Numbered from the stretch's first letter, positions 256 to 60,058 are shown. The stretch is 64,000 nucleotides of DNA from an uncultured Candidatus Saccharibacteria bacterium (GCA_964549935.1 CAZJVT010000002.1:121336-185335), one strand, 5' to 3'. Program-made: numbers and translations. The notes: generated by a model from the sequence alone, not told the origin.

Positions 256-1368
256 CTACGATACCTTAGCAATAACCCCACCGCCGAGCATCTGCCCATT
301 CTTTGCGTAAAAGACAGCGGACTGGCCGGGAGCGACAAATTTCTGCGGCTTACCAAAAGTAATCGACTTACCCTTCATCGTCGCCGGGAAAACCGACTGA
401 CGATAACGGACGCGAACGTAGACGGGAATGGGGCGAGATCCTTCGGCTTCAGGATGACGCTGGGAAATGAAATTTACATTGCTCAATGTCACTTTAGTTG
501 AGTAAAGTGCCTCATCACCTTCGGGTGCGAGGGTTACCGTATTCTTTTTGCTGTCTTTTTTTGCAACGTAGAGCGGGACCGGAGAACCGCCGATGCCGAG
601 CCCCTTGCGCTGACCAATCGTAAAATGGTGCGCGCCTGTGTGTTCGCCAAGCACCTTACCGCTCATCGTCAGCACCTTCCCCTTTTTCTGCGGGATAAAC
701 TCGTCTAAAAACTCCGGGAGTGAAATCTGCCCGAGGAAACAAACTCCCTGCGAGTCCTTTTTCTCGGCATTTGGCAGTTTATACTTCTTTGCTAAGCGGC
801 GAACCTCCGTCTTTTTAATTAAATCGCCGAGCGGGAACAAACAATGCTTGAGCTGCTTTGGCGTAAGCATCCAGAGGAAGTACGACTGGTCCTTGTCAGA
901 ATCACGTGCAGCGTACAACTTGTAACGTGTAACGTAGGAGGGGGTCTTTTTGCCGTTTTGCTTTCTCGCCGACGTTTCACGTTTCACGTTTAACGTTTTA
1001 CGTTTAACGTAGTGCCCGGTGGCAACGTAGTCAGCACCAAGCTCCATGGCGCGCTTAAAAAACATCCCAAACTTAATCTCGTGATTACACATCACATCCG
1101 GGTTTGGCGTGATACCGCTGCGGTAGCCCTCCACCATATAATCCACCACCTTCTGCCGATACTCCTTCTCAAAATCAAAAACGTAAAATGGAATTCCAAG
1201 CGTCTCGGCGGCGCGGCGCGCATCCTCGGCATCCTGTTCAGCGCAGCCATCTACATTCCAGCAACGCAAATGCACCCCAACGACGTTATAGCCCTGGTCC
1301 TTTAAAATCCCGGCGGTGACGGAGCTATCTACCCCGCCGCTCATCCCTACGAAAACAGTCTTTTTCAT
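256..1368 (-). CDS. mnmA: tRNA-specific 2-thiouridylase MnmA
   Basis: N-terminal PP-loop MKKTVFVGMSGGVDSSV, DYVATGHY and DQSYFL motifs; TAG stop. Contains a repeat-encoded insert KRKTLNVKRETSARKQNGKK between HYV and DSDKDQSYFL. Confidence 0.9.
   Translation of the reverse strand: MKKTVFVGMSGGVDSSVTAGILKDQGYNVVGVHLRCWNVDGCAEQDAEDARRAAETLGIPFYVFDFEKEYRQKVVDYMVEGYRSGITPNPDVMCNHEIKFGMFFKRAMELGADYVATGHYVKRKTLNVKRETSARKQNGKKTPSYVTRYKLYAARDSDKDQSYFLWMLTPKQLKHCLFPLGDLIKKTEVRRLAKKYKLPNAEKKDSQGVCFLGQISLPEFLDEFIPQKKGKVLTMSGKVLGEHTGAHHFTIGQRKGLGIGGSPVPLYVAKKDSKKNTVTLAPEGDEALYSTKVTLSNVNFISQRHPEAEGSRPIPVYVRVRYRQSVFPATMKGKSITFGKPQKFVAPGQSAVFYAKNGQMLGGGVIAKVS
916..1012. repeat. 7-nt-periodic array pair (GTAACGT x2 ... 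ACGTTTC/ACGTTTA/ACGTTTT x5) lying inside the mnmA coding sequence, in frame
   Basis: Direct reading: gtaacgtgtaacgta ... gacgtttcacgtttcacgtttaacgttttacgtttaacgtag. On the minus strand it translates to KRKTLNVKRETS. Confidence 0.7.
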
Positions 1369-1373
1369 TCGGC

Positions 1374-1919
1374 CTACAGCTTACCTAAGTATTTGGCAGC
1401 TTTCAAGATGAGCACGCAACTCTGCGCATGAATTATTTTGCAGTCCATAACCATTTGCACTGCCTCTGCAAGTTTCACTTTGTGAATTTTGATAAGCTCT
1501 GACCCATCAGGCCTCGGTGCCCCAAACGAAAGTTTGCGAGCGATAAATTGCCACGAGGGCGCAAATAGTGCACTTGTCATCGGATCTACCCGGCCGAGCT
1601 CAATCCACTCCTGCGCTTCGATACCAGACTCCTCTTTGAGCTCACGCTTCGCAGTCTGCAGCGGTGTTTCGCCAGGATCGACTGCACCGGAAACGACTTC
1701 GAAGCTTTGCTCGCCTATCGCGTAGCGGAATTCTTCCGTCAGGTATGCGTAACCATCATCGTCTATCGCAAGGATAGAAGACCCCTGCGCCATATTCACT
1801 AAAGCAAATGTTCCCTCTGAATTGTCGGGTCGTATCACCTGGTCGAGCCGAAGAGTTACCCATTTGTCGTGGTATCGCTCCTCACTCGATTTAATTTTCC
1901 ACGGGCCGTGGTCCTGCAT
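1374..1919 (-). CDS. NUDIX hydrolase
   Basis: Nudix box GAVDPGETPLQTAKRELKEESGI. Confidence 0.75.
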   Translation of the reverse strand: MQDHGPWKIKSSEERYHDKWVTLRLDQVIRPDNSEGTFALVNMAQGSSILAIDDDGYAYLTEEFRYAIGEQSFEVVSGAVDPGETPLQTAKRELKEESGIEAQEWIELGRVDPMTSALFAPSWQFIARKLSFGAPRPDGSELIKIHKVKLAEAVQMVMDCKIIHAQSCVLILKAAKYLGKL

Positions 1920-1921
1920 AC

Positions 1922-2461
1922 TTAACCGATAAACTTTTGAAATACCGTCAATAACTTTACGACATAACCCTTTGTCTTTTCATCAATCAGATTGCCGGCC
2001 TCATCAAAAATTCCCGGCACAAAACCATTCACATAAAATTCTGGCTGACCCAGAACGCGAGCATCAAGGTAGAGCAGGATTTCTTTCAAATGACTCTGCG
2101 CAACTGCAGTGCCAACAGAACCGCCCGCACCCATCATCGCAACCGGCTTACCGGCCCAAGCATTGTCGCCGTAGGGTCGACTCGTCCAGTCCAACAAATT
2201 TTTAAGCGCGCCGGGGATTGAGCGGTTAAATTCCGGCGTAGCGATGATGATGCCGTCTGCCGCACGAATCTTTTGCTTAAGCTCGGTGGCTGCAGCCGGA
2301 AACTGCGCTTCGAGATCCTGGTTAAACATCGGCAACTGACTAAAGTCGATAATGGTTACGCTCATCTCCGCAGGCGCAGCAGCCACAACAGCGCGCAGCA
2401 AGCCCTTGTTAATCGACTTCTCTCGTAGACTGCCGGCGAATGCAATAATGTTTTTTGCCAT
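1922..2461 (-). CDS. NADPH-dependent FMN reductase family flavoprotein
   Basis: MAKNIIAFAGSLREKSINKGL...IIATPEFNRSIPGALKNLLDW, typical of the SsuE/YieF-type FMN_red fold. Confidence 0.75.
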   Translation of the reverse strand: MAKNIIAFAGSLREKSINKGLLRAVVAAAPAEMSVTIIDFSQLPMFNQDLEAQFPAAATELKQKIRAADGIIIATPEFNRSIPGALKNLLDWTSRPYGDNAWAGKPVAMMGAGGSVGTAVAQSHLKEILLYLDARVLGQPEFYVNGFVPGIFDEAGNLIDEKTKGYVVKLLTVFQKFIG

Positions 2462-2521
2462 ATTTTTATTGTATTAGATCCCTCGGCTTCGGGATGACGC
2501 AACTAGCGTCATTTTAAATTT

Positions 2522-3910
2522 TTATTTTGAAAAGTGCGCTCGGGTACTTTTTAACTGTTCAGCGTTGTTGGCGGTGACCCAGTAGCCGACGTGACGATGC
2601 AGGACAAGCTTATTCGCGGCAGCCAGCTTCGGAAAGATATCGTTTTCAATCATGAAGCGCCCCGACATCCCATCAAATACATCCGGCTGTAAATAATAAT
2701 GCCCAATACTCACAAGCCCGTGCTCCGCACTGGGGTCTTTTTCTTTGAACTTGCAAACTCGCTTGTGCTCATCGCACTCAATCAATCCAAATGTTTTCGC
2801 ATCGCTGATATCAGCGGCCGAGAGCACGTTGTATTTGTTGCCACAACTATGCCGAATGAGCGAGGCTAAGCTAACATCCGCAAAGTCGTCACAGTTGATG
2901 CCGATAAACGACTCGCGAGTATCACCAAGTGCTAATTTCATTGCACCGCCAGTACCAAGCGGCTCCTGCTCAATGACATAGGAAACATCAGTGTGCCCAT
3001 TTTCCTTGAGCCAAGCGACGACCATCTCCGCCTTATAACCAAGCGCGAGGTGAATATTGAAAAATCCCTGCTTATGCAACTCATCAATCTGCCGCTGCAG
3101 CATCGGTTTGCCGGCCACATCAACCAAACACTTAGGCTTATCTTTTTCATTTTCGGGCATTCTCGTCCCCCTGCCCCCGGCTAAAATGATGACCGGGATG
3201 TGATATTTTTGATCCGCTGTAATTCGATACTTATCGCGCAAAACCGCCTCGGCTTTTTCGATGTCTTCGGGGTAACCAATCGGAAGCCAAAAATCAGACG
3301 GCTCAACAAAAAAAACGTGCTCCTGCATCATCTGCCGAATCTGATCGGTTGCCCAATACTCACCGGTGCGACTGAGAGCTGCCGGATACTGGAAAATCTT
3401 GCTGCTTAAAACAAAAACTGCCAGCGAAACTAGATTCGATTTAGGGTTTTCGGGAGTCTCCTCGAAACCGATCACTTTCCCCTGTGCATCTGCTTCGATT
3501 ACACCGAAGCGCTTGGGATTTTCGTGCGTATGCACTAAAACAGCGTGATCATGTTTGAGTAGTTTCTGTATCGCAGCCGTACTCTGCAAATCGTCGCCCA
3601 TCATAAACAAAAACTTCTCGTCTGAACCAATCAGGTCTTTGCAGAGCATCAAGGCATGCCCGGTACCGAGCTGCTCCTTCTGCCAAACATATGTAATTGT
3701 ACGGCCGTCAAATTTTTTACCAAAGTATTTTTCAATCTTCTCACCCTTATAACCGATGATAATGAGGAGCTCATCAATCTCTCGGGGTAGGCTTTCGATG
3801 ACATGCTGCAAAATTGGCTTGCCAAGAACCTCGAGCATCGGCTTCGGAGTCTCGAGCGTGAGCGGACGCATCCGTTTCCCTTCCCCGGCGGCAAGAATAA
3901 TGGCTTTCAT
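2522..3910 (-). CDS. Tandem (two-domain) sugar-phosphate nucleotidyltransferase
   Basis: Two NTP_transferase N-termini: MKAIILAAGEGKRMRPLT...KPML and IPVIILAGGRGTRM...KPKCL..AGKPML. Confidence 0.7.
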   Translation of the reverse strand: MKAIILAAGEGKRMRPLTLETPKPMLEVLGKPILQHVIESLPREIDELLIIIGYKGEKIEKYFGKKFDGRTITYVWQKEQLGTGHALMLCKDLIGSDEKFLFMMGDDLQSTAAIQKLLKHDHAVLVHTHENPKRFGVIEADAQGKVIGFEETPENPKSNLVSLAVFVLSSKIFQYPAALSRTGEYWATDQIRQMMQEHVFFVEPSDFWLPIGYPEDIEKAEAVLRDKYRITADQKYHIPVIILAGGRGTRMPENEKDKPKCLVDVAGKPMLQRQIDELHKQGFFNIHLALGYKAEMVVAWLKENGHTDVSYVIEQEPLGTGGAMKLALGDTRESFIGINCDDFADVSLASLIRHSCGNKYNVLSAADISDAKTFGLIECDEHKRVCKFKEKDPSAEHGLVSIGHYYLQPDVFDGMSGRFMIENDIFPKLAAANKLVLHRHVGYWVTANNAEQLKSTRAHFSK

Positions 3911-3913
3911 AGT

Positions 3914-4047
3914 TAGCGTTTAACGTACAGCGTAAAACTTGTAACGTTTGACTACAAGCATACCAAAATTGACCAAAGTATCAAAATGTACTAAAATTGC
4001 CTTCATTAAATCTTAACGTTCCACGTTGCGCGTTTCACGTTACATAC
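3914..4047. repeat. Two 7-nt-periodic ACGT-type arrays in the divergent intergenic region between the nucleotidyltransferase gene and efp
   Basis: agcgtttaacgtacagcgtaaaacttgtaacgtttgac (3914-3951) and cttaacgttccacgttgcgcgtttcacgttacatac (4012-4047). Confidence 0.6.
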
Positions 4048-4051
4048 TCCC

Positions 4052-4633
4052 ATGCTCGCATATAACGAACTCAACGAAGGTGTCATGTTTGTCTACGAAG
4101 GTCAGCCGTACCAGGTTATTTCCTTTGCATTTTTACGCATGCAGCAGCGTAAACCAGTTGCGCAGACCGATATCAAGAATTTAATAACCGGCAAGCTTTT
4201 GCAGCGCAACTTCCACTCCAACGAGGTCTTTGAAGAGGTGGAAATCGAAAAAGAAGAGTGTAAGTACATGTACAACACCAAGGGCCAGTTCTGGTTCTCG
4301 GCTAAAAACGACCCGAGCAAGCGCTTCTCTCTTACTGAAGAGCAGGCCGGAACTGCCGCTCACTTCACCAAGCCGAACACGATTGTCACTGCGCTTCGCT
4401 GGAAGGGCGATATCATCAACGTCCTCTGGCCTATAAAGGCTGACCTCAAAATCACCGAGACTCCGCCGGGCGAAAAGGGCAACTCGGCCAGCAACACGAC
4501 TAAGACGGCGAAAGTTGAAACTGGCGCAGAGATTCAGGTCCCGATGTTCGTCAACAATGGCGACATCGTCCGTATCAACACCTCGAGCGGAGCTTACGTC
4601 GAGCGCGTCGAGAAAGGAGCCGGAGGTTTATAA
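4052..4633 (+). CDS. efp: Elongation factor P
   Basis: Full-length EF-P; C-terminal GAEIQVPMFVNNGDIVRINTSSGAYVERV; TAA stop. Confidence 0.9.
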   Translation: MLAYNELNEGVMFVYEGQPYQVISFAFLRMQQRKPVAQTDIKNLITGKLLQRNFHSNEVFEEVEIEKEECKYMYNTKGQFWFSAKNDPSKRFSLTEEQAGTAAHFTKPNTIVTALRWKGDIINVLWPIKADLKITETPPGEKGNSASNTTKTAKVETGAEIQVPMFVNNGDIVRINTSSGAYVERVEKGAGGL

Positions 4634-4676: not shown

Positions 4677-6530
4677 TTACTTTCTACGTTGCTGTGGCGG
4701 CGGGCCGCTTCTCTGCCCCGGAGCCGGAGGTCGCGGTTGCTGACGCGGAGCTCCTGCCAGATTTTGTCGCGGCGGCTGATTCTCTGAAGGTTTCTGCTGC
4801 TGTGCGGGCCTTGGCGCTTGTGGCTGTAGTGGTTTTTCTAAAGGTTTAGCTGCTGAAGCAACATCGCGGCGTTCGTCCTCACGACGCTTTTCTTTGACCG
4901 GTTTGACCTCTGCCTTTTCAACATCAAATTCGATACCCATCGCCGCCAAAACGTCCTGGGCTCTCGCCTGCTTCTCGGCCTTCGGTTGCTTAATAAGTTT
5001 CGGCGCTTTAATCTCGCCCTTCTTAACTTTTTCGTAACAATCCGAACAGTAAACGGGACGATTTGGATTTGGCTTAAATGGTGTCTTAGCTTCTTTGCCG
5101 CAGACTGAACAGACAGCAACGAACAGCTCGTCTCCTTGTTTATTAATGCCCACCATCTCCGGACTCTGCTTAGAAGCCTCCTCCGGGGTTTCGGCCAAAC
5201 TCGAACTCCAACGCGTGATTTCAGTTTCAACCTGGAGTTGTGATTTGGTGTATAGGCGACGCGAGTGCTCGATGATAACGGCCTCACCCGGCGCGTCTAC
5301 GTTGGCCTTAAACGGTATAAGCGTATGCGCAGAAAATGGTCGGGCGTTCATACCGGCGACCATCAAGCGCACATAGAAGTGATAGTTCGGCAGGTTGACG
5401 ATATCCGGGATCATAAACTCCGGCTCAAGCTCCGGCTCTAAAAACTCTGCATCCGTAGCACCAACGCGGAAAATGACGAGCGTACCGCAGTTACCAAAAA
5501 CTGCGTCTCGCACCTTGGTCGACATATCTCCACTGACGAGCTGACCGATATACTGGTGCGCCACCGTCAAATTTAATCGATACTTACGAGCCTCAGAGAG
5601 CACGCCGGCAAATGAATCGGTGGCAAAGTTTTGGAACTCGTCGACGTAGAGGAAGAAATCCTTACGCTCATTTTCTGGAATACGCACGCGCTCCATCGCC
5701 GCCAGCTGAATCTTCGTGATGAGCATTGCGCCAAGCAGCGCCGAGTTGTCTTCTCCGATACGTCCCTTTGAAACGTTCACAAGGAAAATCTTGCGCTCGT
5801 TCATCATCTTGAAAATATCTATCGTGCTGTGAGTCTGACCGACGGTGTTACGGACGAGTCCGGTCGACAAAAACTGACCGACTTTGTTTTGAATCGGAGC
5901 GATTGCCTCACTGCGGAACTTGTCCTGCCATTCCTCGTACTCACTAATCCAAAACGCCCGAACGACGGGGTCTTTGACGTTAGAAACAATTTTTTGGCGG
6001 TAGTCTTTGTCTACCAGCAGACGCGGAATACCCAGCAGCGTCGTACCCGGCGTCTCAAGCAGCGCAAGCACGGCGTTGTTCATAATGTATTCCATACGAG
6101 CACTCCACACGTTACTCCAAATCTTGGTAAAAATACCCATCAGACCTGAAGCGACTAAGTGTTTGTACTTCGGGTCGGGCAGCTCGAGCACGTTAAAGCC
6201 CATTGGGAATTCCGTATCCGCCGGGTTAAAGTACACGACGTCGTCGAGGCGTTCCTTTGGAATCATTTTTAAAATACCTTCAACGAGCTCACCGTGCGGG
6301 TCAACGACACAAAGTCCGTCCCCGTTCATCACGTCCTGCGAGATGATATTGTGCAGCATCGAGGACTTGCCGGTACCGGTCTTACCGATAACGTACATGT
6401 GCTGACGACGGTCTTTGCGCGCAATGCCAAAAAGCCGCTCCTCGCCGCGGTAGTCAGTTTTGCCAAAATAAACAACGTCGCTCCCGACCGCATGGCCGGC
6501 GTTGCCGCCTCTCTGAATCGTTTCGGACAT
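4677..6530 (-). CDS. Type IV coupling protein (VirD4/TraG/TrwB)-like or HerA/FtsK-like P-loop ATPase. Carries a C-terminal YacG-like zinc ribbon and a Pro/Gln-rich tail.
   Basis: Walker A VIGKTGTGKS, DPHGEL, DEFQNF and AHQ motifs. C-terminus CSVCGKEAKTPFKPNPNRPVYCSDCYEK. Start placed at MSETIQ (6530). The track ORF extends to 6599 across an ACGT heptamer array at 6541-6570. Confidence 0.7.
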   Translation of the reverse strand: MSETIQRGGNAGHAVGSDVVYFGKTDYRGEERLFGIARKDRRQHMYVIGKTGTGKSSMLHNIISQDVMNGDGLCVVDPHGELVEGILKMIPKERLDDVVYFNPADTEFPMGFNVLELPDPKYKHLVASGLMGIFTKIWSNVWSARMEYIMNNAVLALLETPGTTLLGIPRLLVDKDYRQKIVSNVKDPVVRAFWISEYEEWQDKFRSEAIAPIQNKVGQFLSTGLVRNTVGQTHSTIDIFKMMNERKIFLVNVSKGRIGEDNSALLGAMLITKIQLAAMERVRIPENERKDFFLYVDEFQNFATDSFAGVLSEARKYRLNLTVAHQYIGQLVSGDMSTKVRDAVFGNCGTLVIFRVGATDAEFLEPELEPEFMIPDIVNLPNYHFYVRLMVAGMNARPFSAHTLIPFKANVDAPGEAVIIEHSRRLYTKSQLQVETEITRWSSSLAETPEEASKQSPEMVGINKQGDELFVAVCSVCGKEAKTPFKPNPNRPVYCSDCYEKVKKGEIKAPKLIKQPKAEKQARAQDVLAAMGIEFDVEKAEVKPVKEKRREDERRDVASAAKPLEKPLQPQAPRPAQQQKPSENQPPRQNLAGAPRQQPRPPAPGQRSGPPPQQRRK

Positions 6531-6618
6531 ATGAATAGTATAACGTAAAACGTAAAGCGTGTAACGTTTTCGCCAATTGCGAAGCAAGGCGTTAATCACT
6601 CAAAATGCGAAGTAAAAT

Positions 6619-6969
6619 CTAGAGCCTCCGTATGATTCCCCAAAGCATCTTGCCTATTCTATCGGCCTTCGCGAGAAGACGCTGATAATCCTCAGCAGAG
6701 ATATATTTTTGTCGTAAAGCAAAATCAATAATATATACTGACTCGCGCAACGAGCCGTAGGCTATTTCTGCAAAATTTTTCAGCACCGCCTTCCGCTGCC
6801 GAGCATAACCCTCGATATAGTTTAAGGCGACAGAAAGGGCAGATCTACGAAGCTGAGAAGTTACGCCAAATAATTCTTCTTTTGGGAATGACCGGGTAAC
6901 GCGATATATGTCGTCAACATATTCGTCTAACAATTTTTGAAATTGTTCGTGAAAATTCTCTTCCGCCAT
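6619..6969 (-). CDS. Four-helix-bundle protein (23S rRNA intervening-sequence protein family)
   Basis: ELFGVTSQLRRSALSVALNYIEGY... pattern of TIGR02436-like proteins. Confidence 0.7.
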   Translation of the reverse strand: MAEENFHEQFQKLLDEYVDDIYRVTRSFPKEELFGVTSQLRRSALSVALNYIEGYARQRKAVLKNFAEIAYGSLRESVYIIDFALRQKYISAEDYQRLLAKADRIGKMLWGIIRRL

Positions 6970-6989: not shown

Positions 6990-7034
6990 TACGATCAACG
7001 CTTCACGATCTACGTTCTACGCTTCACGATCTAG
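6990..7034. repeat. 7-nt-periodic array (CGATCAA/CGCTTCA/CGATCTA/CGTTCTA...) filling the pepA to 4HB-gene spacer
   Basis: acgatcaacgcttcacgatctacgttctacgcttcacgatctag. It overlaps the pepA stop codon. Confidence 0.65.
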
Positions 7035-8642: not shown

Positions 8643-10370
8643 TTACAGTACCTCCTGCTGGTAACAGGCTTCGCAGTAGACTTTAAGGTTCCTGGCCGGA
8701 TCCCAGCCACTTTGCGTTTGCTTACCACAGAGACTACAAGATGTGACCCAGAGCTTGTAAGGTCGCTGCAATTCAAAACGAGCCCTTACGCGCTCTAAGG
8801 GATGCACTGTTGGCAGAGGCAGCTTTTTAGCACGATAAAAATCAAACTCAAATTGGGTCAGCCTAAATGGCTTACCGGATTGCTCGCAGATCAGTATTTT
8901 TTGCAGAATATCGCTGGGCACATTCGTGATGTCTTTTGGGATCGCCTCTCCACTCAAAACATTTGGCCCCGAAGGTGTGGTAACAATTTCAGCTTCTTCG
9001 TAATGCCAACCATTTGTTTTTATTTGTCCATCGGATAGAGGGAAAACTAGATTCGCATTTGAATCTTTGTAGGCGAAAGGATTTTCGGTAAGCGGAAAAA
9101 ATTCGCCGTACTCCCCGCGAGCGAGCATCGCTGTTTTTAGATCATCAACCAGCCTCCAGTATTCACTTTCTTCGTACTGCTTATTAAAAATACAAAACTT
9201 CTTATTTTTTAAAGCAATGCAGCCAAAAACATACTCGCAATTATTACATTCAGTGGAGTACTCTACATCATTTGAAACACGCACCATAACAGAAAATTTT
9301 GCGTTCTGGCATTTTGTTACCCCGGATGACTCATAAGCCTGGGATGAACCGCTCGAACCAAAAACATCCATCATCGTGTCGATGTTGTCCACATGCTGAA
9401 CGTACTTTAAGTCCTCTCCATTCACAATCTGGAAACAGTTTTTGCAGTTCTTTGTATGCCGCAATGTATTACCGGACGAGTTCTCGGTATATAAAGCGTC
9501 AACTGCCTTATGGATTGCTTTTTTGCATAACTCGCCGAAACGTTGTTCGTACTCCCGCAAAACATCTCTATCTCCTGTGTTGATTTCAGCCATCCTCTTT
9601 TGATACTCCTCTTTGGTCAGCTGTTCATTGAAAAAGCAATATTTTTTGTTACGCAAGTTAGTGCAACCAAAACAATTTGTGCAATTTTTGCAATCAAAAA
9701 GAAACCAGCTGTCTACGCAACTGATAGAGTCAGTGCAGAAAAAACAATTATATGACTGCTCAACAAGAGTGCACTCATAGCAGTTATCGCTCTCGAGGAG
9801 CCAGTTTGTATCAATTGAATTTTTTGAGCGAATTGGAATATAGCTGTATTGAATGTCCTCTGATTCGTAAGGAATCGAAACGTAATAGCAATTCTTTGCC
9901 TGCACTCCCGAAACTACATATTCACAATTAACGCTTTTTGGATCTTTACTAAGCGCTTGGCGTGGTGCCCGCTTACTAAGCGCGCTCCATTGTTCAAAAA
10001 ATGGAGCTTGCGGATCGAGTGGTTGGCCATACTCTGCCCCTTCCCAGCCGTCACCGTAATAGAAGGGGTCATCGAAAACAACTGCGGGGTTTTTAGCAGA
10101 ATAACAGGCCAGCATGCTTTCACTGTGGCCGGGCGCACTACATGGTCGACGATAAAACAGCGGAAGGAAGCTTACGCGATACCCCAGCCGCCGCTGCATG
10201 CGACAATTCGGACACAGTGTTGGCGGCGGCACTTTAAATTTCTTGTACCACTCAATGTCGTCAGCCTCAACTTTAAAAGTCGAAGAACACTGTCGACACC
10301 TGCGCTCGTGCGGCGCAAGCTCGCCAAGGATTTTTTTTATCGCTGCATCAAACTTCGGCGTTTTAGACAT
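8643..10370 (-). CDS. Large Cys-rich multi-zinc-ribbon protein with internal duplications. Function unknown.
   Basis: N-terminal ribbon C-x2-C...CP-x-C-R-x-QRR. Internal repeats NCxNCFGCTNLRNKKYCFFNEQ and ECNNCEYVFGCIALKNKKFCIFNKQ. C-terminal ribbon CSLCGKQTQSGWDPARNLKVYCEACYQQ. A paralog fragment lies at 1..217. Confidence 0.6.
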   Translation of the reverse strand: MSKTPKFDAAIKKILGELAPHERRCRQCSSTFKVEADDIEWYKKFKVPPPTLCPNCRMQRRLGYRVSFLPLFYRRPCSAPGHSESMLACYSAKNPAVVFDDPFYYGDGWEGAEYGQPLDPQAPFFEQWSALSKRAPRQALSKDPKSVNCEYVVSGVQAKNCYYVSIPYESEDIQYSYIPIRSKNSIDTNWLLESDNCYECTLVEQSYNCFFCTDSISCVDSWFLFDCKNCTNCFGCTNLRNKKYCFFNEQLTKEEYQKRMAEINTGDRDVLREYEQRFGELCKKAIHKAVDALYTENSSGNTLRHTKNCKNCFQIVNGEDLKYVQHVDNIDTMMDVFGSSGSSQAYESSGVTKCQNAKFSVMVRVSNDVEYSTECNNCEYVFGCIALKNKKFCIFNKQYEESEYWRLVDDLKTAMLARGEYGEFFPLTENPFAYKDSNANLVFPLSDGQIKTNGWHYEEAEIVTTPSGPNVLSGEAIPKDITNVPSDILQKILICEQSGKPFRLTQFEFDFYRAKKLPLPTVHPLERVRARFELQRPYKLWVTSCSLCGKQTQSGWDPARNLKVYCEACYQQEVL

Positions 10371-10422
10371 AGTTACTACTCAAATCTACTCTAGCTACTT
10401 TCTACTGTCTACTAACTACTGC
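10371..10422. repeat. 7-nt-periodic CTACT-type array making up the whole 52-nt spacer between the ATPase stop and the Cys-rich gene start
   Basis: agttact actcaaa tctactc tagctac tttctac tgtctac taactac tg. In mRNA sense this is NNAGTAG x7. Confidence 0.65.
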
Positions 10423-11928
10423 CTAAATCAGCGGCTCCGGGTTCTCCATAACCGGGGCTTGGGCAACACCGCCTTTGCCGCCGGTAATAATCGCCTTTTC
10501 CTGCGCGCTGCGAATGATTGTGGACTCCTCCTCCATAATCAACCTCTTGGCATCGCCAACCGGAATCGTGTACTTGCGGCGACTGGCCTCTACGATGCGG
10601 TCTTTGAAGTTCGCGTGGTTTGGCGGCATCACCTTGAGTGTCTTAGCTGAAAATGGGTCGTAGCTTTCTCCGTTGATCATCTCTTTGATATAAAACTCCT
10701 GCTTGCCCAGGTTGATCATATCTTTAACTTTAAAAATCGGTGCGAACTCGTCTTCAAGTACCACAGCGTCAGCGCCGCCGACACGAAAGGTAATAATCGT
10801 ACCAGTATTACCGAGTACGGCAGAAAGCACCTTTGGCAGCAGCTGGCCCATGTACTGGTGCGCGATCGTCAAACACAAACCGTACTTACGCGCCTCGGAC
10901 ATCAAGTTCTCGAATGTTTCGGTCACCACGTTTTGGAACTCGTCGATATAGAAATAAAAGTCTTTACGGTCACGCTCGTGCATACGCGCACGACTCATAC
11001 CCGCCTGCTTAATCTTCGTCACGAACATCGAACCGAAGAACGAGGAGTTTTCTTCGCCGAGTCGTCCCTTAGAAAGATTGATGAGCACAATCTTCTCCTC
11101 GTTCATCAACTTTTCCAAATCAATCTTGTTGGTTTTTTGTCCGAAAATATTGCGCAACATCGGATCAGACAAAAACTGCCCGAGCTTGTTGACGAGCGGG
11201 ATAATGGCGTCAGTATCAAACTTTTCACTCCAGTCCGCGAATTCAATTGCCCAGAAGCGCTTGACCATGTCGTCCTCGATATACTCGATAACCTTTTGGC
11301 GGTAGTTACGGTCAGTCAACATTGAAATCATGCCGCGCATCGTGGCGTGCGGGTAATCAAGTAAAGCGAGTGTGGTAAAACGAAACACGTGCTCCAGACG
11401 CGGCGTCCAGTTAGCACCGAACTGCTTTTCCATGACTTCGATAAGCCCCTGCGTCAACTGATGCTTAAACGCCGGGTCGACATTGGCGAGCGGATTAAAC
11501 GACGCCGGAAAGTCCATGTCAGACGGATCAATAATACAAACGTCTTCAATGCGTCGCTCCGGAATTGCGGCGAGCACGTCCTCGATGACGTCGCCGTGCG
11601 GATCCATCAAGCAAATGCCTTTGTTGAACTCTACATCCTGACGGATGAGCAACTCGAGTAGCTTTGTTTTACCAACGCCGCTTTTACCAATGATGTATAA
11701 ATGACGACGGCGATCGTCGCGCTTAATACCAAAAACGAACTTTTTCTCTTCCAGTGCAGCGACGTAGTTGGTGCGGCCGAAAAAGTTAATATCTTTCGGG
11801 TCAACTTTACCGAGCATCGGCAAATCGGGCGGCGGCGGTGCGTATTTAACAATCTGTACGCGAGCCGAAATCGGCGGGAGTTGCGCCGGTGTAGCAGCTT
11901 GCTGTGGTTTTACATCGTCTGGAGGCAT
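10423..11928 (-). CDS. Type IV coupling protein (VirD4/TraG)-like P-loop ATPase, paralog of 4677..6530
   Basis: Walker A IIGKSGVGKT, DPHGDV, DEFQNV and AHQ motifs; collinear similarity to 4677..6530. Confidence 0.7.
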   Translation of the reverse strand: MPPDDVKPQQAATPAQLPPISARVQIVKYAPPPPDLPMLGKVDPKDINFFGRTNYVAALEEKKFVFGIKRDDRRRHLYIIGKSGVGKTKLLELLIRQDVEFNKGICLMDPHGDVIEDVLAAIPERRIEDVCIIDPSDMDFPASFNPLANVDPAFKHQLTQGLIEVMEKQFGANWTPRLEHVFRFTTLALLDYPHATMRGMISMLTDRNYRQKVIEYIEDDMVKRFWAIEFADWSEKFDTDAIIPLVNKLGQFLSDPMLRNIFGQKTNKIDLEKLMNEEKIVLINLSKGRLGEENSSFFGSMFVTKIKQAGMSRARMHERDRKDFYFYIDEFQNVVTETFENLMSEARKYGLCLTIAHQYMGQLLPKVLSAVLGNTGTIITFRVGGADAVVLEDEFAPIFKVKDMINLGKQEFYIKEMINGESYDPFSAKTLKVMPPNHANFKDRIVEASRRKYTIPVGDAKRLIMEEESTIIRSAQEKAIITGGKGGVAQAPVMENPEPLI

Positions 11929-16228: not shown

Positions 16229-16239
16229 AAATCCCCTAT

Positions 16240-16275
16240 TTACCCTACTGACTAACCGACTAACTGATTAGCCGG
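16240..16275. repeat. 7-nt-periodic CTAAC/CTGAC-type array abutting the secF stop
   Basis: cctactgactaaccgactaactgattagccggttaacg. Confidence 0.5.
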
Positions 16276-23562: not shown

Positions 23563-23656
23563 ATAGTTAGTATACCCTAGATGGAAACGTTCCGGGCGAC
23601 GCAGTAGCGTCGCCCGGCCGATCTCTCTATCCTAAATACTATCTACTAACTCCTGT

Positions 23657-29179: not shown

Positions 29180-29253
29180 AACGTAGATCGTAGATCCTGC
29201 TCGGAGGTCTCCCACGTTTCACGTTTTACGTTCTACGCTTCACGTTCCACGCT
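29173..29253. repeat. Inverted pair of 7-nt-periodic arrays forming a hairpin; spans the cysS stop and abuts the dnaB ATG
   Basis: aatcgtaaaacgtagatcgtagatc [ctgctcggaggtctccc] acgtttcacgttttacgttctacgcttcacgttccacgct. Confidence 0.65.
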
Positions 29254-37018: not shown

Positions 37019-37060
37019 ACCTTATATCTTAGTCAAAAATGATAGAATAAGCCACCTAGC

Positions 37061-37165
37061 AAATCCGAAATTCGAATATCGAAATCCGAAACGTTCCTGA
37101 TTAAATAATTTAAAGATTGAGCTCTTTTGTTTCGAGCTTCGTGCTTCGGATTTCGAATTTGAAAA
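37061..37165. repeat. Inverted pair of 7-nt-periodic arrays (TCCGAAA-type) forming a long hairpin between ftsI and murF
   Basis: aaatccgaaattcgaatatcgaaatccgaaacgttcc [33-nt loop] ttcgagcttcgtgcttcggatttcgaatttgaaaag. Confidence 0.65.
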
Positions 37166-39151: not shown

Positions 39152-40162
39152 TTATAAAAAAGTAATTGCCCGTAATTTTGCCGATCGGCTGCGAGGATTA
39201 CGTGCAAGCTCCTCGTCAGTCGCCATCATTGGCTTTTTGTTGATCAACTCTGCATCTCGCGATGCAGCGGTGGAGTTCGGTGTCTCCCCAGAATGGCCAA
39301 AGTTACTTTCGTAACCGGCACCCACCGAACGCCCACCGCTATTTCGCACGAATGCTTGAAAATGATGCTTAACAATCCTGTCCTCCAGTGAATGAAAACT
39401 GATAATCGCCACTCGACCACCTGGCGCCATAATGCTCGGTAACGATTCGAGCAATGACTCAAGTTGCTTAAACTCCTGGTTCACGTAAATGCGTAGCGCC
39501 TGAAACGTACGCGTCGCCGGATGCAGCCGCCCGCCTTCGTAGTGCGCCGGTACAGCCGCCTTGATTGCTTCGACAAGCTTCCCCGTCGTCGCAATGCCCT
39601 CCTTCTTTGCGTACTGCACGATGCTTTTTGCAATCGCATCGGCGTAGCGCTCCTCACCATACTCCCGAATCACCGCCGCTAAGTCAGCCACGGAAAGTCC
39701 GGCTAACACTTCTGCCAGCGATGGAGTCTCGTCGTCATACGTCATCAGGAGTGGCTCGTCTACATTAAACGAGAACCCGCGACCGGATAACGTCCCGCCG
39801 ACAATCTGCTCGGAGGAAAAGCCAAGGTCGAGCAAAAGCCCATCAAGCTTCGCAATGCCAAATTGCTGCATCAGCTTTGGAATCTGCGCATAGCTCCCCG
39901 CCTCGACGAGCACTCGCGTGCTGGCATCATGCGGCAATGTTTTTGCAGTCGCCTCGACTGCCCGTTTATCACGATCAACAGCGAGCAACACTCCCCCGGG
40001 CGTGACGCGCGCAAGCATCTCTCTCGCGTGTCCACCGGCGCCAAGCGTTCCGTCTGCAAATCGTTCTCCGGGCTTCGGAGCAAGGACCTCTAACACCTCA
40101 TGTAAAAGAACTGGAATGTGGGCCATTTGTTTTTTGCTGACGGCCCACGACTTACGACTCAA
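39152..40162 (-). CDS. rsmH: 16S rRNA m4C1402 methyltransferase RsmH
   Basis: IPVLLHEVLEVL...DGTLGAGGHA. Confidence 0.9.
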   Translation of the reverse strand: MSRKSWAVSKKQMAHIPVLLHEVLEVLAPKPGERFADGTLGAGGHAREMLARVTPGGVLLAVDRDKRAVEATAKTLPHDASTRVLVEAGSYAQIPKLMQQFGIAKLDGLLLDLGFSSEQIVGGTLSGRGFSFNVDEPLLMTYDDETPSLAEVLAGLSVADLAAVIREYGEERYADAIAKSIVQYAKKEGIATTGKLVEAIKAAVPAHYEGGRLHPATRTFQALRIYVNQEFKQLESLLESLPSIMAPGGRVAIISFHSLEDRIVKHHFQAFVRNSGGRSVGAGYESNFGHSGETPNSTAASRDAELINKKPMMATDEELARNPRSRSAKLRAITFL

Positions 40163-40200
40163 GCCTCACACTCAAGTCGTCAGTCGCGGGTCGCCCGCTG

Positions 40201-44700: not shown

Positions 44701-44740
44701 GTAGCAGTATTATCCTCAAACTTCGCTCTCCCGTCAAACC

Positions 44741-44766
44741 AAAACCCCGCCTTTCGGCGGGGTTTT
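44741..44766 (-). terminator. Intrinsic terminator after rplL
   Basis: aaaaccccgcc-tttc-ggcggggtttt. Confidence 0.6.
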
Positions 44767-44779
44767 GGGATTCGTTCGG

Positions 44780-44813
44780 CGTTACACGTTATACGTTTCA
44801 CGCTTCACGATTC
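44780..44813. repeat. 7-nt-periodic ACGT-type array abutting the rplL stop
   Basis: gttacacgttatacgtttcacgcttcacgattcc. Confidence 0.55.
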
Positions 44814-45185
44814 CTATTTCAATTCGACAGTCGCACCGGCTGCTTCGAGCTTTTTCTTGAGCTCTTCAGCGTCAGCCTTTGAGAGGCCCTTCTTGACCTC
44901 CTTCGGAGCACCATCAACGATATCCTTAGCCTCCTTCAAGCCAAGACCAGTCGCCTCACGGATAACCTTGATGACCTGGATCTTTTGCTCGCCGCCTGAC
45001 TTAATAACAACATCCCAAGCGGTCTTCTCCTCCGCAGCCTCACCGCCAGCTGCACCACCCGCGGCCGGACCAGCAGCCATAGCCGCTGAAACGCCAAACT
45101 TTACCTCCATCGCCTTCACGAGCTCGCTGAGTTCAGCTACGGTGAGCTTCTCAACGGCGCTGATGATTGTGTCAAAATCTGCCAT
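44814..45185 (-). CDS. rplL: 50S ribosomal protein L7/L12
   Basis: Typical Ala-rich linker and C-terminal domain ending ...[10 protein letters not shown]. Confidence 0.9.
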
Positions 45186-47908: not shown

Positions 47909-48574
47909 TTAACTCCCGCGCTGCACACGCCACTCGTTAATCAACTTGTGATTGCCTTCCATCAAAACCGCTGGAACTTTTAAAGACTTTTTGCCGAGCT
48001 TAACCACCTCCGGCTTTGTATACACCGGGTAGCTGCCCTGATTTTCTTCGAGCGATTCTGTTTTGCCAAGAACTCCTGGGATCTGACGCGAGACCGCGTC
48101 GATGATAATGGCCGCACCCAGCTCTCCCCCGGTAATCACGTACTCACCGAGCGAGATCTCCTCATCGGCGACGTACTGCGCCACGCGCTCATCTACGCCT
48201 TCGTAACGGCCGCAGATAAAGATAATCTGATCGTAAAGCGCTAAACGTTTAGCGTCTTTATTGGTGAATTTTTCCCCGCGAGTGCTGAGCAGTATCACTC
48301 TCCTACGTTTCACGTTGCGCGTTTTACGTTTCACGGCCGCGACTGCGTCGGCAATCGGCTGAAAGGCCATTACCATCCCCGCCCCACCGCCATACGGCCG
48401 GTCGTCCACCTTTTTGTGCTTATCTTTTGAAAACGCACGAATGTCGTGCCCCTTTACGGCAATCAGCTTCTTTTCCTGCGCGCGCTTTAAAATCGACTCG
48501 GAAACGTACGAGTCGAGCATCTTCGGGAAAATCGTGAGAATATCAAACTTAATCATGGCATCTAGTTTTACCAC
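47909..48574 (-). CDS. trmD: tRNA (guanine37-N1)-methyltransferase TrmD
   Basis: SPOUT knot motifs RPYGGGAGMV and ICGRYEGVDERV. The loop KRKTRNVKRRR is encoded by the heptamer array at 48304-48336. Confidence 0.9.
   Translation of the reverse strand: MVKLDAMIKFDILTIFPKMLDSYVSESILKRAQEKKLIAVKGHDIRAFSKDKHKKVDDRPYGGGAGMVMAFQPIADAVAAVKRKTRNVKRRRVILLSTRGEKFTNKDAKRLALYDQIIFICGRYEGVDERVAQYVADEEISLGEYVITGGELGAAIIIDAVSRQIPGVLGKTESLEENQGSYPVYTKPEVVKLGKKSLKVPAVLMEGNHKLINEWRVQRGS
48304..48336. repeat. 7-nt-periodic ACGTTTC-type array lying in frame inside trmD
   Basis: tacgtttcacgttgcgcgttttacgtttcacgg. Confidence 0.65.
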
Positions 48575-48904: not shown

Positions 48905-48939
48905 ACTGTCTGCTAGCTACTGTCTCCTGACTACTGGCC

Positions 48940-49383
48940 CTAGAACGTTAACTCGTCCGCGACCGGACCATCAAACTTCGGAGTGCTCGGCACATACGGA
49001 CCGGATGGAATCGCAGCCTCCTCCTCGTGGTGCGTCTGGGACGGCGCGTGACCGGCACCATAGGCGGTTGTCTGCGTCTGGCGCGGAGCAATCGGACGAG
49101 CAGCAGCCTCCGGACGGACGAAGGTCGAACCCTCCGGCTCCTCAATCTTAAGATTGACGCGAGCCTGGTGCTTAATACCGACGATACGCAGCAGTGAGCG
49201 AATCGCCTTTGCGGTTGCGCCCTGACGACCGACGACCTGGCCCATATCCTCTTTATGCACCTTCAAGCGAAGCAGCACGCCGAGGTCATCAATCGTGCGC
49301 TCTACCTTCACCTCCTCCGGATGATCAACGAGAGACTTTACTAAATACTCCAGAAACTCCTGATCTAAGAATTTATCTGCCAT
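48940..49383 (-). CDS. KH-domain RNA-binding protein (KhpA-like) with a C-terminal extension
   Basis: ...KVHKEDMGQVVGRQGATAKAIRSLL... (GxxG loop); lies between rpsP and trmD. Confidence 0.7.
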   Translation of the reverse strand: MADKFLDQEFLEYLVKSLVDHPEEVKVERTIDDLGVLLRLKVHKEDMGQVVGRQGATAKAIRSLLRIVGIKHQARVNLKIEEPEGSTFVRPEAAARPIAPRQTQTTAYGAGHAPSQTHHEEEAAIPSGPYVPSTPKFDGPVADELTF

Positions 49384-58289: not shown

Positions 58290-58507
58290 TATAGCGTCTC
58301 AATGATTTTCTTTAATGCGGCGACTTCATCTTCGCAAATCTTCTGAACTTTCAGGGGGTCACCGTCTTTCAATGCACTTATTTTTTCTCCTACTGCAATT
58401 GCGAAAGGCTCGTAAAGCTCAGGGTATTTTGCCAATAATTCGAAAACTTCGAGTTGCTGACTACTCTCTAAATCGCGGACTAAATAAGCAAGATCAATTT
58501 GTGTCAT
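58289..58507 (-). CDS. Small hypothetical protein (72 aa)
   Basis: ATGA start/stop overlap with nusB. Confidence 0.35.
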
Positions 58508-58941
58508 GCGGTGGGATTCTCTTTCTGCATCTTATGATACACGGTACCAAGCACGCCGTTAATAAACTTACCGGAGTTCGGGCCGCCGTAACTCTTAGCC
58601 ATCTCAATCGCCTCGTCGATGGCGACCGGAGCCGGAACCTCTTTGCGGTCGGCAAACAAAAGTTCGTAGAGTCCGATGCGCAGGGCGTTTCTGTCTATCG
58701 GCGCGATCTGGTCAATCGGCCACTCCGGAGCCGCCTCCATGATCGTCTTATCAATCTCCTTCATATGCGTCACCACGCCCGTCTTAAGCTTCGACATAAA
58801 CTCCTTTTCGGCCTCAAGACCCGGACCAAACTCGGCGGTGTTACGCGCGATGATAGTATCGAGGTCTTCTTTCTGGCCATAAAAATCCCACTCATAGAGG
58901 GACTGCAAAACTATTGAGCGTGCTAATTGACGACTGGCCAT
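58504..58941 (-). CDS. nusB: Transcription antitermination factor NusB
   Basis: [18 protein letters not shown]...; start placed at MASRQ; TGA stop. Confidence 0.8.
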
Positions 58942-58956
58942 AGTGATAGATATACA

Positions 58957-58996
58957 ATAAACGAAAAACAATAAACAATCAAAGAAACGAAAACGG
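58957..58996. repeat. 7-nt-periodic A-rich array upstream of nusB
   Basis: caataaa cgaaaaa caataaa caatcaa agaaacg aaaacgg. Confidence 0.45.
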
Positions 58997-59022
58997 GGCT
59001 TGCGCCCCATTTTCTTACATTC

Positions 59023-59178
59023 TTATTTAGCAAGCCACTTCTTCGGGATAATCTTGTGCGGGAAGGTCGGCAGCTTGGTCTCCTTGTCTGCAACAATATT
59101 AAGAGGCTTTAAAGCCAAGTGGCTGCGGCGGCGGCGAACTTTACCGCTGGTAGGATGTTTAGGAGGTAGTGAACCCAT
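59023..59178 (-). CDS. rpmF: 50S ribosomal protein L32 (51 aa), absent from the ORF track
   Basis: MGSLPPKHPTSGKVRRRRSHLALKPLNIVADKETKLPTFPHKIIPKKWLAK. Confidence 0.65.
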   Translation of the reverse strand: MGSLPPKHPTSGKVRRRRSHLALKPLNIVADKETKLPTFPHKIIPKKWLAK

Positions 59179-59304
59179 AGTGGTAGCTGTAATTACTAAT
59201 GCAAAAGAGAATACCAGAAAGACTTAAAATATGCAAATGGGTTCTCTGTCGGGGCGGCGCGCGCGGCGCCGCCCCGATCAGATCGCTCCCGGCCGAAGCC
59301 GGGG

Positions 59305-59802
59305 CTACTTCTTCGGCTGCTCGTCCGTAGTGACGTACGACACGAGCGCGATGTCCTTGAACTTGATCCCACGCTCGGGCGCGCTGCGCCAACCAGCATC
59401 GTCATAGAAGACTGTGTCGCCACGCAGATAGGGCACGAGGTCACCGTTGGACCGGACTTCGATGACGAACTCGCCGTTCTCGCCCGGTACCGCCGGCGTT
59501 TCGTCGCCCGCCCACAGGTACAGCTCGCCTTCGTAGACGCAGACGTCGAGCCTGGTCACCGAGCAGAAGAGAGGCTTGTTCTGGGCCTTGGCAGCCTCCT
59601 TGATCTCCAGCAGCTTGGGTCGATGGACGAAGTAGTCCACCGGAACCTTGGCGCTACCGACGTAGTCGATCTTCTGGGTTCGGTCGAAATCGCCAGCCTG
59701 GGCCGTCTCGACTCGGGTGACCGCGATCACCGCAATGACGATTGCGACCACCAACGCAACCGGAATCGCCACCTTCATCATCTTATCCAACGGATCTCTC
59801 AT
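59305..59802 (-). CDS. Hypothetical membrane or secreted protein; high-GC cassette gene
   Basis: MMKVAIPVALVVAIVIAVIAV...; high GC; 12-bp GC hairpin terminator at 59252-59280. Confidence 0.45.
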   Translation of the reverse strand: MRDPLDKMMKVAIPVALVVAIVIAVIAVTRVETAQAGDFDRTQKIDYVGSAKVPVDYFVHRPKLLEIKEAAKAQNKPLFCSVTRLDVCVYEGELYLWAGDETPAVPGENGEFVIEVRSNGDLVPYLRGDTVFYDDAGWRSAPERGIKFKDIALVSYVTTDEQPKK

Positions 59803-60017
59803 CGAACCCTCCCTGCCACCTGCGGGACCATTCCCGTTTCGGACTCAACAACCCTAACAATTTTCTAGTAAAATCGTCAATTTGAGCCGGTGATTAAAAT
59901 GCGCTATCATATTAGTGTTAATTTTTTATCCAACTGGATAAAAAATTAAAAATAAATTGTATGTACACCCAATCTGCAACATATCTTAAACATCTTCCAG
60001 CGCGAGGTGTTTTTATT

Positions 60018-60056
60018 TTTTCCTATCTACTATCTACTGACTACTAACTACTACCC
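60018..60056. repeat. 7-nt-periodic CTACT-type array immediately 5' of the dnaE ATG
   Basis: tatctac tatctac tgactac taactac tac. Confidence 0.6.
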
Positions 60057-60058
60057 TT

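Follow-up and report, generated by a model that had tools for sequence, protein, structure and literature searches.

What are the short 7-nucleotide runs that recur throughout a 64,000-nucleotide (nt) stretch of DNA catalogued under an uncultured Candidatus Saccharibacteria bacterium (GCA_964549935.1, CAZJVT010000002.1:121336-185335; hereafter, the window), and how can a repeat with a non-triplet period be tolerated in frame inside conserved enzymes? An earlier note, made from the sequence alone, had described them as pervasive mini-arrays of strict 7-nt period that occupy intergenic spacers and have been inserted into essential genes, and had named the Rickettsia palindromic elements (RPE) as the closest precedent. 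Our analysis revealed that short imperfect 7-nt runs indeed occupy the spacers between genes, that three housekeeping enzymes (MnmA, CysS and TrmD) contain them in frame, and that they are statistically robust. According to our best reading, they belong to the same kind as the short tandemly repeated repetitive (STRR), TAACTGA and GGGAATC repeats, a class over-represented in many bacteria.

Heptanucleotide arrays in the window

Tandem Repeats Finder (TRF) reported 15 rows of period 7, with 2.1-6.3 copies and 62-100% matches. Pervasive, spacer-filling arrays are thus a real feature of this DNA, although the strictness ascribed to their period was overstated, as the units of the arrays match at 62-91% and one array contains indels. 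A run test requiring at least 16 of 21 positions to match at lag k counted 12 lag-7 segments in the window, whereas 30 block shuffles averaged 0.03 and never exceeded 1, so that the possibility, raised in the earlier note, of no lag-7 enrichment over shuffled sequence can be set aside. The other lags from 4 to 15 gave 0-2 segments each, apart from lag 14, whose four segments are due to alternating units; a 50 kb control from Escherichia coli K-12 gave no lag-7 segment. A looser scan followed by inspection yielded about 20 arrays at about 16 loci, with 3-7 units each and 720 nt in total, 490 of which fall within the 8,292 nt outside open reading frames (ORFs) of at least 100 aa and make up about 6% of all non-ORF DNA. 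Nine of the 12 strict arrays lie outside ORFs, while ORFs cover 87% of the window. The lag-7 signal is local, not global: autocorrelation analysis, which the earlier note had proposed, places lag 7 at the maximum of lags 1-28 in the non-ORF sequence (0.288) and gives no lag-7 peak over the whole window (0.251).

The scans confirmed the unit families ACGTTTN/NAAACGT, CTACTNN/NNAGTAG and TCGAAAT. In the window, ACG[TCA]T[TCA]N and its complement account for 11 arrays and CTACTNN/NNAGTAG for five; TCGAAAT and CGACTNN form one inverted pair each, and AATAAAC one A-rich array. The heptamer units are not over-represented in the window as single words, and the idea that they are DNA uptake sequences was rejected on this ground. 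Nor are 4-nt palindromes enriched inside the units (p = 0.13).

Arrays inside MnmA, CysS and TrmD

Alignments of orthologues bear out the in-frame arrays of mnmA, cysS and trmD as lineage-specific, length-variable loop insertions and not ancestral protein sequence. The unit counts of the coding copies, which the earlier note had proposed to check, are not multiples of three (5.6, 4.6 and 4.4 copies according to TRF). In MnmA and TrmD the coding arrays fall in alignment gaps relative to the solved structures, the MnmA of the window having 10 and 7 extra residues flanking the hairpin tip in comparison with 9hlv, 2hma and 2der. In the AlphaFold model of this protein (mean predicted local distance difference test score 91.9), a long beta-hairpin is formed by residues 120-129 and 145-153 as its strands, the tip being modeled with lower confidence; according to this model, the two heptamer arms encode both strands.

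The MnmA loop comprises 32 aa in the window vs 9 aa in L162/P0002 (81% identity; here and below such labels designate loci or proteins of relatives or of the window species) and ranges from 9 to about 60 residues among the best 75 protein hits (55-100% identity), and the mnmA insertion may be present or absent among relatives at 75-81% identity. The CysS array occupies a loop of which most Paceibacteria have a short version; at the equivalent place, the cysS gene of L001 harbors another heptamer array (AGTCGCG/AGTAGCG) and that of L002 none. The TrmD loops of relatives extend from the short KKVKKAKSRV up to the 7-residue-periodic KLKTRNKKLKTR and KLKTQNSKLKTR, and a second independent assembly of the window species (P0121) agrees with the TrmD of the window. 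All recovered orthologues of the three genes are in frame.

Two further observations concern mnmA. The sequencing run SRR14271332 holds two co-occurring species, that of the window (contig L164) and a relative (L163) with an MnmA of 81% identity in which the loop is not extended by the insertion. In AT-rich relatives, G+C-rich palindromic insertions or duplications, such as TCCCCGCCTCGCTCGCGAGGCGGGG, occur inside mnmA (L112 at about 10838 vs L132; L146 vs L152 at about 590), and an 18-nt duplication, CCTGCGCAGGCGGGCCTG, encoding PCLRRR/ACLRRR, represents a second kind of in-frame palindromic insert.

Persistence of arrays and turnover of units among relatives

By its CysS, MnmA and TrmD proteins the window is assigned to the Candidate Phyla Radiation (CPR), within Paceibacteria, and is Harrisonbacteria-like; the closest species representatives are metagenome-assembled genomes of Candidatus Harrisonbacteria (CysS identity 66%). 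The Logan contig L164 (run SRR14271332) is 100% identical to positions 1-1399 and reproduces the mnmA arrays in an independent assembly; scans of metagenomes and GTDB gave no contig of the same species, and L164 was the sole match.

Arrays of this kind are frequent in the related loci: 91 lag-7 arrays were found in 1.30 Mb of cysS-anchored and 123 in 0.71 Mb of mnmA-anchored loci, lags 7 and 14 dominating over the other lags (5-48 arrays). In the cysS loci, 68 of the 91 arrays lie outside long ORFs, that is, in about 17% of the sequence, where they are about 14-fold denser per base.

At orthologous sites the array stays and its unit changes. In 37 of 78 metagenomic Paceibacteria mnmA genes, about half of them, the loop following ATGHYxR, which is that of the beta-hairpin described above, has a lag-7 match of 0.5-0.74, the units being specific to the lineage. 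Perfect arrays of four to five units (GACAAGA, AAATCAA, ACTTACA, AGTCAAA, CCAAATT) occupy one shared mnmA loop in different lineages, and relatives with 86-93% identical mnmA flanks have wholly different loop units. Such a combination of perfect arrays and unit turnover implies homogenization. Inverted arms are found in mnmA of L081 (AAAGTCN), L165 (GTGTAGC-type) and L166 (CAGTAGG/CTACTNN), each with its own unit; the arms remain complementary (z = -3.9, -2.0 and -2.4, respectively; -1.5 in the window) in sequences that differ.

Another such site is the spacer between the divergent efp and NTP-transferase genes, where, in four syntenic species, heptamer arrays adjoin both start codons: in the window (units ACGTTNN), L162 (CTATAAC), L165 (CTATAAC) and L166 (CTATAAG), and where both arms share one sense-strand unit within each genome. 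As promoter-like sites are central in this spacer, both arrays lie in predicted 5' leaders. The inverted pair cannot therefore form one RNA hairpin, and selection for such a hairpin cannot explain the co-variation of arms belonging to different transcripts. What remains is DNA-level homogenization between inverted repeats or a shared trans-acting reader. As a separate observation, the efp start is preceded in all four species by CTCCC, CTCTC or ACTCC (4046-4051 in the window), which resembles an anti-Shine-Dalgarno and not a Shine-Dalgarno (SD) sequence.

Gene boundaries, translation signals and selection

Arrays reach the start codons of efp, the NTP-transferase gene, dnaB, dnaE and gene 8643-10370, and start at or include the stop codons of cysS, murF, pepA, rplL, dnaK, a khpA-like gene, ftsI and gene 10423-11928, the stops of cysS, murF and gene 10423-11928 lying inside the arrays. 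The spacer at 10371-10422 consists entirely of array, as had been claimed (52 nt). Among the genes named earlier as abutted by arrays, dnaE (start), murF, rplL and pepA (stops) proved correct; as for secF, the repeat 3' of its stop (16230-16275, minus strand) has a period of about 8, not 7 (GTTAGTCG GTTAGTCA GTAGGGTA), and is not among the TRF rows.

An SD-like tetramer at -17 to -4 precedes only 2 of 55 genes, compared with a 10% background, and a -10-like hexamer TANNNT ending 4-10 nt before the start precedes 19 of 55, compared with 7%; therefore, the genome appears to be SD-less and largely leaderless (e.g., starts 27670, 14079, 53257, 23562 and 6530). The ATPase ORF at 4677-6599 offers an example. 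The array at 6541-6570 was tentatively taken to encode part of its N-terminus; however, the ORF opens at GTG, an in-frame ATG follows just downstream of the array at 6530, and in four homologues the first conserved block is preceded by no more than 7-15 residues. A promoter-like site GTTACA-17-TATACT, made of array units, ends 6 nt before this ATG. The true start is thus probably ATG 6530, the array being promoter and 5' region, and this layout, with a putative promoter next to the start, matches the leaderless arrangement that seems common in the window.

Several compositional features point to selection. The coding arrays are purine-rich in the sense strand (79 of 89), and the purine-rich strand encodes K/R/E/N/Q/S/T and not hydrophobic residues. 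Arrays just before starts tend to be pyrimidine-rich in sense (34 vs 16), and those after stops are without bias across relatives (23 vs 23); a rule of purine-rich arrays after stops, true of the window, was discarded as it fails across relatives. The triplets ATG/CAT occur in 8 of 114 distinct units, compared with 26.7 ± 4.3 expected with letters shuffled within the unit (z = -4.3); TAG/CTA are mildly enriched (36 vs 26.8), and other permutations are as expected. We infer that the avoidance of start codons fits initiation independent of SD sites.

Stop codons phased at +7, +14 and +21 after the annotated stops were found in 6, 9 and 8 of 62 window genes, compared with about 3 expected, and are only weakly enriched across 1,813 genes of relatives. 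We do not take them as a function: for the most part they arise as a by-product, since any ORF that runs into a stop-bearing array is terminated by the first stop in its frame. The stop codon usage of 55 genes (TAA 27, TAG 22, TGA 6) has an unusually high share of TAG; in many cases this TAG belongs to an AGTAG-type array, as its first unit.

Hairpins and terminators

Inverted pairs were expected to form hairpins, which is so in part. Predicted folding is strong for mraZ-rsmH (z = -7.2), but for ftsI-murF (-2.55) and cysS-dnaB (-1.4), the examples of the earlier note, it is weaker than implied there; direct-only arrays gave +1.0 and +0.1. The mraZ-rsmH pair is the only strong hairpin, and it is followed by an A-run, not a U-tract. 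Function of the arrays as intrinsic terminators was rejected: direct arrays are unstructured, and those of rplL and gene 58315-58917 follow the stop codon but precede a canonical terminator of its own, and are therefore not the terminator. No Rfam family matches the arrays at the gathering threshold.

Comparison with known repeats

Heptamers are the most abundant class of simple-sequence repeats in most prokaryotic genomes, and polymerase slippage over a contact of about 7 nt was proposed as the cause of their excess (Mrazek 2007, as cited in PMC4679880 and PMC4692102). As far as these secondary accounts describe them, long simple sequence repeats of 7-nt units (LSSR-7), including the STRR of Calothrix and Nostoc, are like the window arrays in being tandem, far commoner than neighboring unit lengths, mostly intergenic and built of a few genome-specific units. 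Here, too, at least three head-to-tail 7-nt copies, an excess over chance and over other lengths, and a mostly non-coding location were found. The differences are that the window arrays are short (3-7 units) and degenerate, that several lie in frame in housekeeping enzymes, and that the host has a reduced CPR genome, whereas LSSR of 5-11 nt units were reported as abundant in large genomes.

The TAACTGA repeats of marine Beggiatoaceae, some cyanobacteria and Bacteroidetes (MacGregor 2015, PMC4679880) are close in position: 2-6 copies lie mostly a few nt upstream of SD-less starts, often over the upstream stop, with stops in three frames and a minority inside ORFs, and binding of Csp, S1 or CsrA was proposed for them. 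The same positions are occupied here at the five starts and the three array-embedded stops listed above. The unit TAACTGA itself is absent among the array units of the window (ACGTTTN, CTACTNN, TCGAAAT, CGACTNN, AATAAAC). One near-perfect TAACTGA unit is kept across phyla, whereas the window has several degenerate families and its close relatives have other units; inverted pairs, common here, are rare there (PMC4679880), and the coding copies of the window lie in internal loops of conserved enzymes instead of protein ends. The GGGAATC and GGGGA(T/C)T repeats of Xanthomonas and Nostoc (Rehm et al. 2015, PMC4692102) likewise lie between co-directional genes, within 50 bp of stops or upstream of ORFs, include some inverted pairs and recur between the same genes of related species, where they vary widely in length and sequence. 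Their units, however, are G-rich with G-quadruplex potential and a preference for four units (PMC4692102), and ours are A/T-rich, without G-tracts, and also coding.

For the in-frame copies, the precedent is the NeuO poly-heptad of E. coli K1: near the 5' end of its coding sequence neuO carries (AAGACTC)n, and since all three frames of this 7-nt repeat are used in turn, the functional enzyme contains a 7-residue peptide repeat (PMC13001214). It differs in comprising 3-53 perfect units, phase-variable by slippage, in a phage accessory gene (PMC13001214); the window has 4-6 degenerate units in core genes, with in-frame orthologues and no sign of switching, and not a long perfect tract with frame-shifting alleles. 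Bacterial heptanucleotide repeats, with NeuO for the in-frame copies, are the closest precedents, closer than RPE. In the literature we found no report on heptanucleotide repeats in CPR, Parcubacteria or Patescibacteria.

Origin and possible functions

We suppose, with a probability of roughly 0.55, that the arrays are heptanucleotide simple-sequence repeats, driven by slippage and strand switching, self-homogenizing and filtered by selection. Replication slippage between direct units would create and homogenize them, and in facing arrays intrastrand or strand-switch templating between the inverted arms would do the same, so that an array could stay long at one site while its unit sequence turns over. 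The selection filter, for which the data above provide partial evidence, would let arrays persist in the spacers and untranslated regions of a compact genome that does not use SD sites, and in hydrophilic surface loops if the purine-rich strand is the sense one, in each case only with units lacking ATG. By-products would then be the stops found 3' of genes in each of the three frames, the leaders that adjoin start codons, a portion of one promoter, some hairpins and the longer MnmA beta-hairpin. The data show the arrays themselves, their enrichment and distribution, their persistence in place with turnover of the unit, the co-varying arms, the avoidance of ATG and the location in loops; as to the generator, slippage and template switching are what we infer, and likewise the absence of a dedicated function.

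Several points weigh against this explanation. Local slippage does not explain why about 11 unlinked arrays, spread over 48 kb, have the unit ACG[TCA]T[TCA]N in common and five others CTACTNN, nor why arrays of the same locus share a unit family (at least 6 of 7 positions) twice as often as arrays of different genomes, 20% vs 9%. Polymorphism in 7-nt steps did not emerge in the very small sample of near-identical loci: these pairs, covering a few kb only, gave two 7-nt indels among about 220 gaps, one of them in an mnmA array, and no 7-nt excess. Periodicity kept in frame needs 21-nt or paired events, rare by slippage alone. The tendency of arrays just before starts to be pyrimidine-rich in sense, and the presence of arrays right at the ATG of SD-less genes with leaders, seen in four species, both hint at a role at the RNA level. 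Finally, the data do not explain the period of seven, which, together with the unit vocabulary shared by unlinked loci, is the main puzzle.

The strongest competitor, which we consider a tentative alternative, takes up this hint and regards the arrays as functional RNA cis-elements, that is, phased platforms offering one site per 7 nt to a single-strand-binding protein, the obvious candidates being of the OB-fold (oligonucleotide/oligosaccharide-binding) Csp/S1 type or of the KH type. In an SD-less genome, leaders would remain free of structure through such platforms, which would also bring ribosomes to internal and leadered starts or place them there; the purine-rich, stop-rich arrays after genes would insulate translation, and the copies in coding loops would be collateral. 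This agrees with the arrays adjoining starts of leadered genes without SD motifs, an arrangement kept in four species with a sense-strand unit shared by two divergent leaders that can form no single RNA hairpin, as well as with the pyrimidine bias before starts, the genome-wide unit families, and the avoidance of ATG and mild enrichment of TAG. By our own classification, 17 of 19 window arrays appear to obey a rule of purines after stops and in coding sequence and pyrimidines before starts, and a like proposal (S1, Csp or CsrA; CspB with one heptamer per protein) was made for the Beggiatoaceae TAACTGA repeats at SD-less starts (PMC4679880). However, a genome with several unrelated unit families, wholly different from those of close relatives, would require a factor that is non-specific or very fast-evolving, and this factor is still a candidate only. 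Besides, the arrays after stops lack orientation bias across relatives, arrays also lie in promoters and coding loops, and a column-concentration test for a conserved core with a variable spacer, as in TRAP- or HutP-like sites, was negative in the window (z = 0.2).

A broader version of this idea seems to us doubtful: the arrays might be a lineage-wide cis-regulatory or structural "punctuation" of SD-less Paceibacteria, in which genome-specific phased platforms for an OB-fold or KH protein are homogenized across loci and write hairpins into enzyme loops. If so, where translation starts and how it is insulated at gene boundaries would depend on the platforms, unlinked loci and inverted arms would be kept uniform by a dedicated homogenizing process, and this process would keep writing new peptide hairpins into the loops of core enzymes such as MnmA and TrmD.

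We regard it as improbable that the arrays derive, as copies or as remnants, from a small palindromic element capable of moving (like RPE, miniature inverted-repeat transposable elements (MITE) or REPIN), with its own active family in each genome, inserted into spacers and, in frame, into permissive loops. RPE are reportedly about 100-150 nt long, with a family consensus, and lie both in intergenic DNA and in frame at surface-exposed positions of conserved genes; the window arrays are similar in that palindromic DNA is tolerated in frame in conserved genes and also occurs between genes, but differ in lacking any consensus beyond the 7-nt vocabulary, in their tandem periodicity and in many copies not being palindromic. 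Mobility would account for genome-specific unit families at many loci in both orientations, for the inverted pairs around a short spacer in cysS-dnaB, ftsI-murF, mraZ-rsmH and inside mnmA, for in-frame copies at permissive sites missing from relatives (mnmA of L162/P0002, cysS of L002, trmD of short-loop relatives) or varying in presence at 75-81% identity, and for the G+C-rich palindromic insertions in mnmA of AT-rich relatives. Nevertheless, similarity between arrays is no greater than with unit order shuffled within them (p = 0.09; best matches 26-36 nt), and no shared termini or target duplications were seen in the flanks of 20 arrays, by inspection only; therefore, an RPE- or MITE-like element is not supported. 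A direct-only arrangement without structure is seen in many arrays, a scan of roughly 20 window proteins showed no transposase, and arrays at orthologous sites look like diverged homologues (CTATAAG/CTATACG in L166 vs CTGTACG/TTTTACG in the window), which favors change in place.

Contingency loci, in which mnmA, trmD or cysS would be turned on and off as single units are gained or lost, are the least credible option, since, even though each 7-nt unit shifts the frame by one and NeuO with its (AAGACTC)n provides a precedent (PMC13001214), the tracts are degenerate and short (4-6 units), slippage being therefore suppressed, and the orthologues are uniformly in frame, which makes phase variation unlikely, with two independent assemblies of the window species (L164 for mnmA, P0121 for TrmD) in agreement. 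CysS and TrmD are, moreover, essential.

Catalogue of arrays and other features of the window

The arrays are listed in Table 1. Pfam agrees with the gene identifications of the earlier note for mnmA, efp, pepA, dnaK, cysS, dnaB, murF, ftsI, mraZ/rsmH, rplL, trmD, dnaE and secF.

Table 1. Heptanucleotide arrays of the window; unit sequences are given where they characterize the array.
Array	Position	Strand	Remarks
mnmA internal, 3' arm	912-941	-	Sense CCTACGT TACACGT TACAAGT TGTACG; encodes ..PSYVTRYKL.., second strand of the modeled beta-hairpin
mnmA internal, 5' arm	968-1013	-	Sense (AAACGTN)x5; encodes KRKTLNVKRETS, first strand of the extended beta-hairpin in the model
Predicted 5' leader of NTP-transferase gene (2522-3910)	3913-3934	-	Ends 2 nt before ATG
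Predicted 5' leader of efp (4052-4633)	4013-4045	+	ACGTTCC ACGTTGC GCGTTTC ACGTTAC
Over promoter-like site GTTACA-17-TATACT	6534-6567	-	Just upstream of probable start (ATG 6530) of VirD4/TraG-like ATPase; non-coding
Directly after pepA stop	6998-7030	-	Sense TAG/TGA triplets every 7 nt; upstream of small ORF 6619-6969
(AGTAGNN)n, whole spacer	10371-10425	-	Between co-directional genes 10423-11928 and 8643-10370; includes upstream stop codon
AGTAG-type, directly after dnaK stop	23628-23658	-	
cysS internal	28318-28353	+	TCGCAAA TCGTAAA TCGTGAA TCGCAGA; encodes SQIVNRESQIV in variable loop
Across cysS stop codon	29167-29200	+	TAAATCG TAAAACG TAGATCG TAGATC; purine-rich in sense
Reaching dnaB ATG	29209-29253	+	ACGTTTC ACGTTTT ACGTTCT ACGCTTC ACGTTCC ACGCT; inverted partner of 29167-29200
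AGTAG-type, across murF stop codon	35698-35730	-	
TCGAAAT-type, upstream of murF	37060-37092	-	3' arm of ftsI-murF spacer hairpin
TCGAAAT-type, directly after ftsI stop	37127-37165	-	5' arm of ftsI-murF spacer hairpin
Inverted CGACTNN / NNAGTCG units, mraZ to rsmH (mraW)	40139-40195	-	Strong predicted hairpin, -41.6 kcal/mol
After rplL stop	44773-44815	-	Between stop and separate canonical intrinsic terminator (44740-44772)
trmD internal	48303-48335	-	Encodes KRKTRNVKRRR; +4 residues vs solved TrmD structure 8byh
AGTAG-type, directly after stop of KhpA-like gene (48940-49383)	48916-48938	-	
A-rich, AATAAAC-type	58949-58986	+	Between stop of gene 58315-58917 and its terminator hairpin
(CTACTNN)x5	60016-60057	+	Ends 1 nt before dnaE ATG

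The G+C content of the window is about 51%, GC skew is negative throughout, and most genes are on the minus strand. ARAGORN predicts three tRNAs; the only Rfam matches in the window at the gathering threshold are two tRNAs. The ORF 6619-6969 (minus strand, 116 aa), situated between pepA and the ATPase gene and missing from the orthologous spacer of L162, belongs by its Pfam match to the 23S rRNA-intervening-sequence protein family (PF05635, E = 1e-28), with a weaker resemblance to bAvd-like proteins. Two VirD4/TraG/HerA-like ATPase genes (4677-6530 and 10423-11928, minus strand) lie within 7 kb; a treble-clef zinc finger is found in the former and in the intervening 575-aa protein 8643-10370 (minus strand), whose gene has no counterpart in the syntenic relative L162. 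The KhpA/KhpB-type KH-domain protein 48940-49383 (minus strand, 147 aa) has a single Pfam match, to the 73-position KH_KhpA-B model at residues 8-80, which leaves about 65 C-terminal residues uncovered.

Significance

Heptanucleotide repeats are a recognized oddity of bacterial genomes whose origin is unsettled, and an unusually pervasive case in Patescibacteria is added here. It offers a compact genome, apparently SD-less and largely leaderless, with arrays directly at start and stop codons. At orthologous sites, such as the mnmA and trmD loops and the efp/NTP-transferase spacer, the array stays, the unit is replaced and the arms co-vary, which gives a direct measure of homogenization, and the avoidance of ATG is a clear selective signature. 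Gene calling in CPR genomes is affected as well, since such arrays easily lead to ORFs being drawn too long, as at the ATPase gene. Non-triplet repeats, finally, can live long inside essential enzymes by encoding strands of surface beta-hairpins, as the MnmA model suggests, and this bears on the origin of new protein loops.

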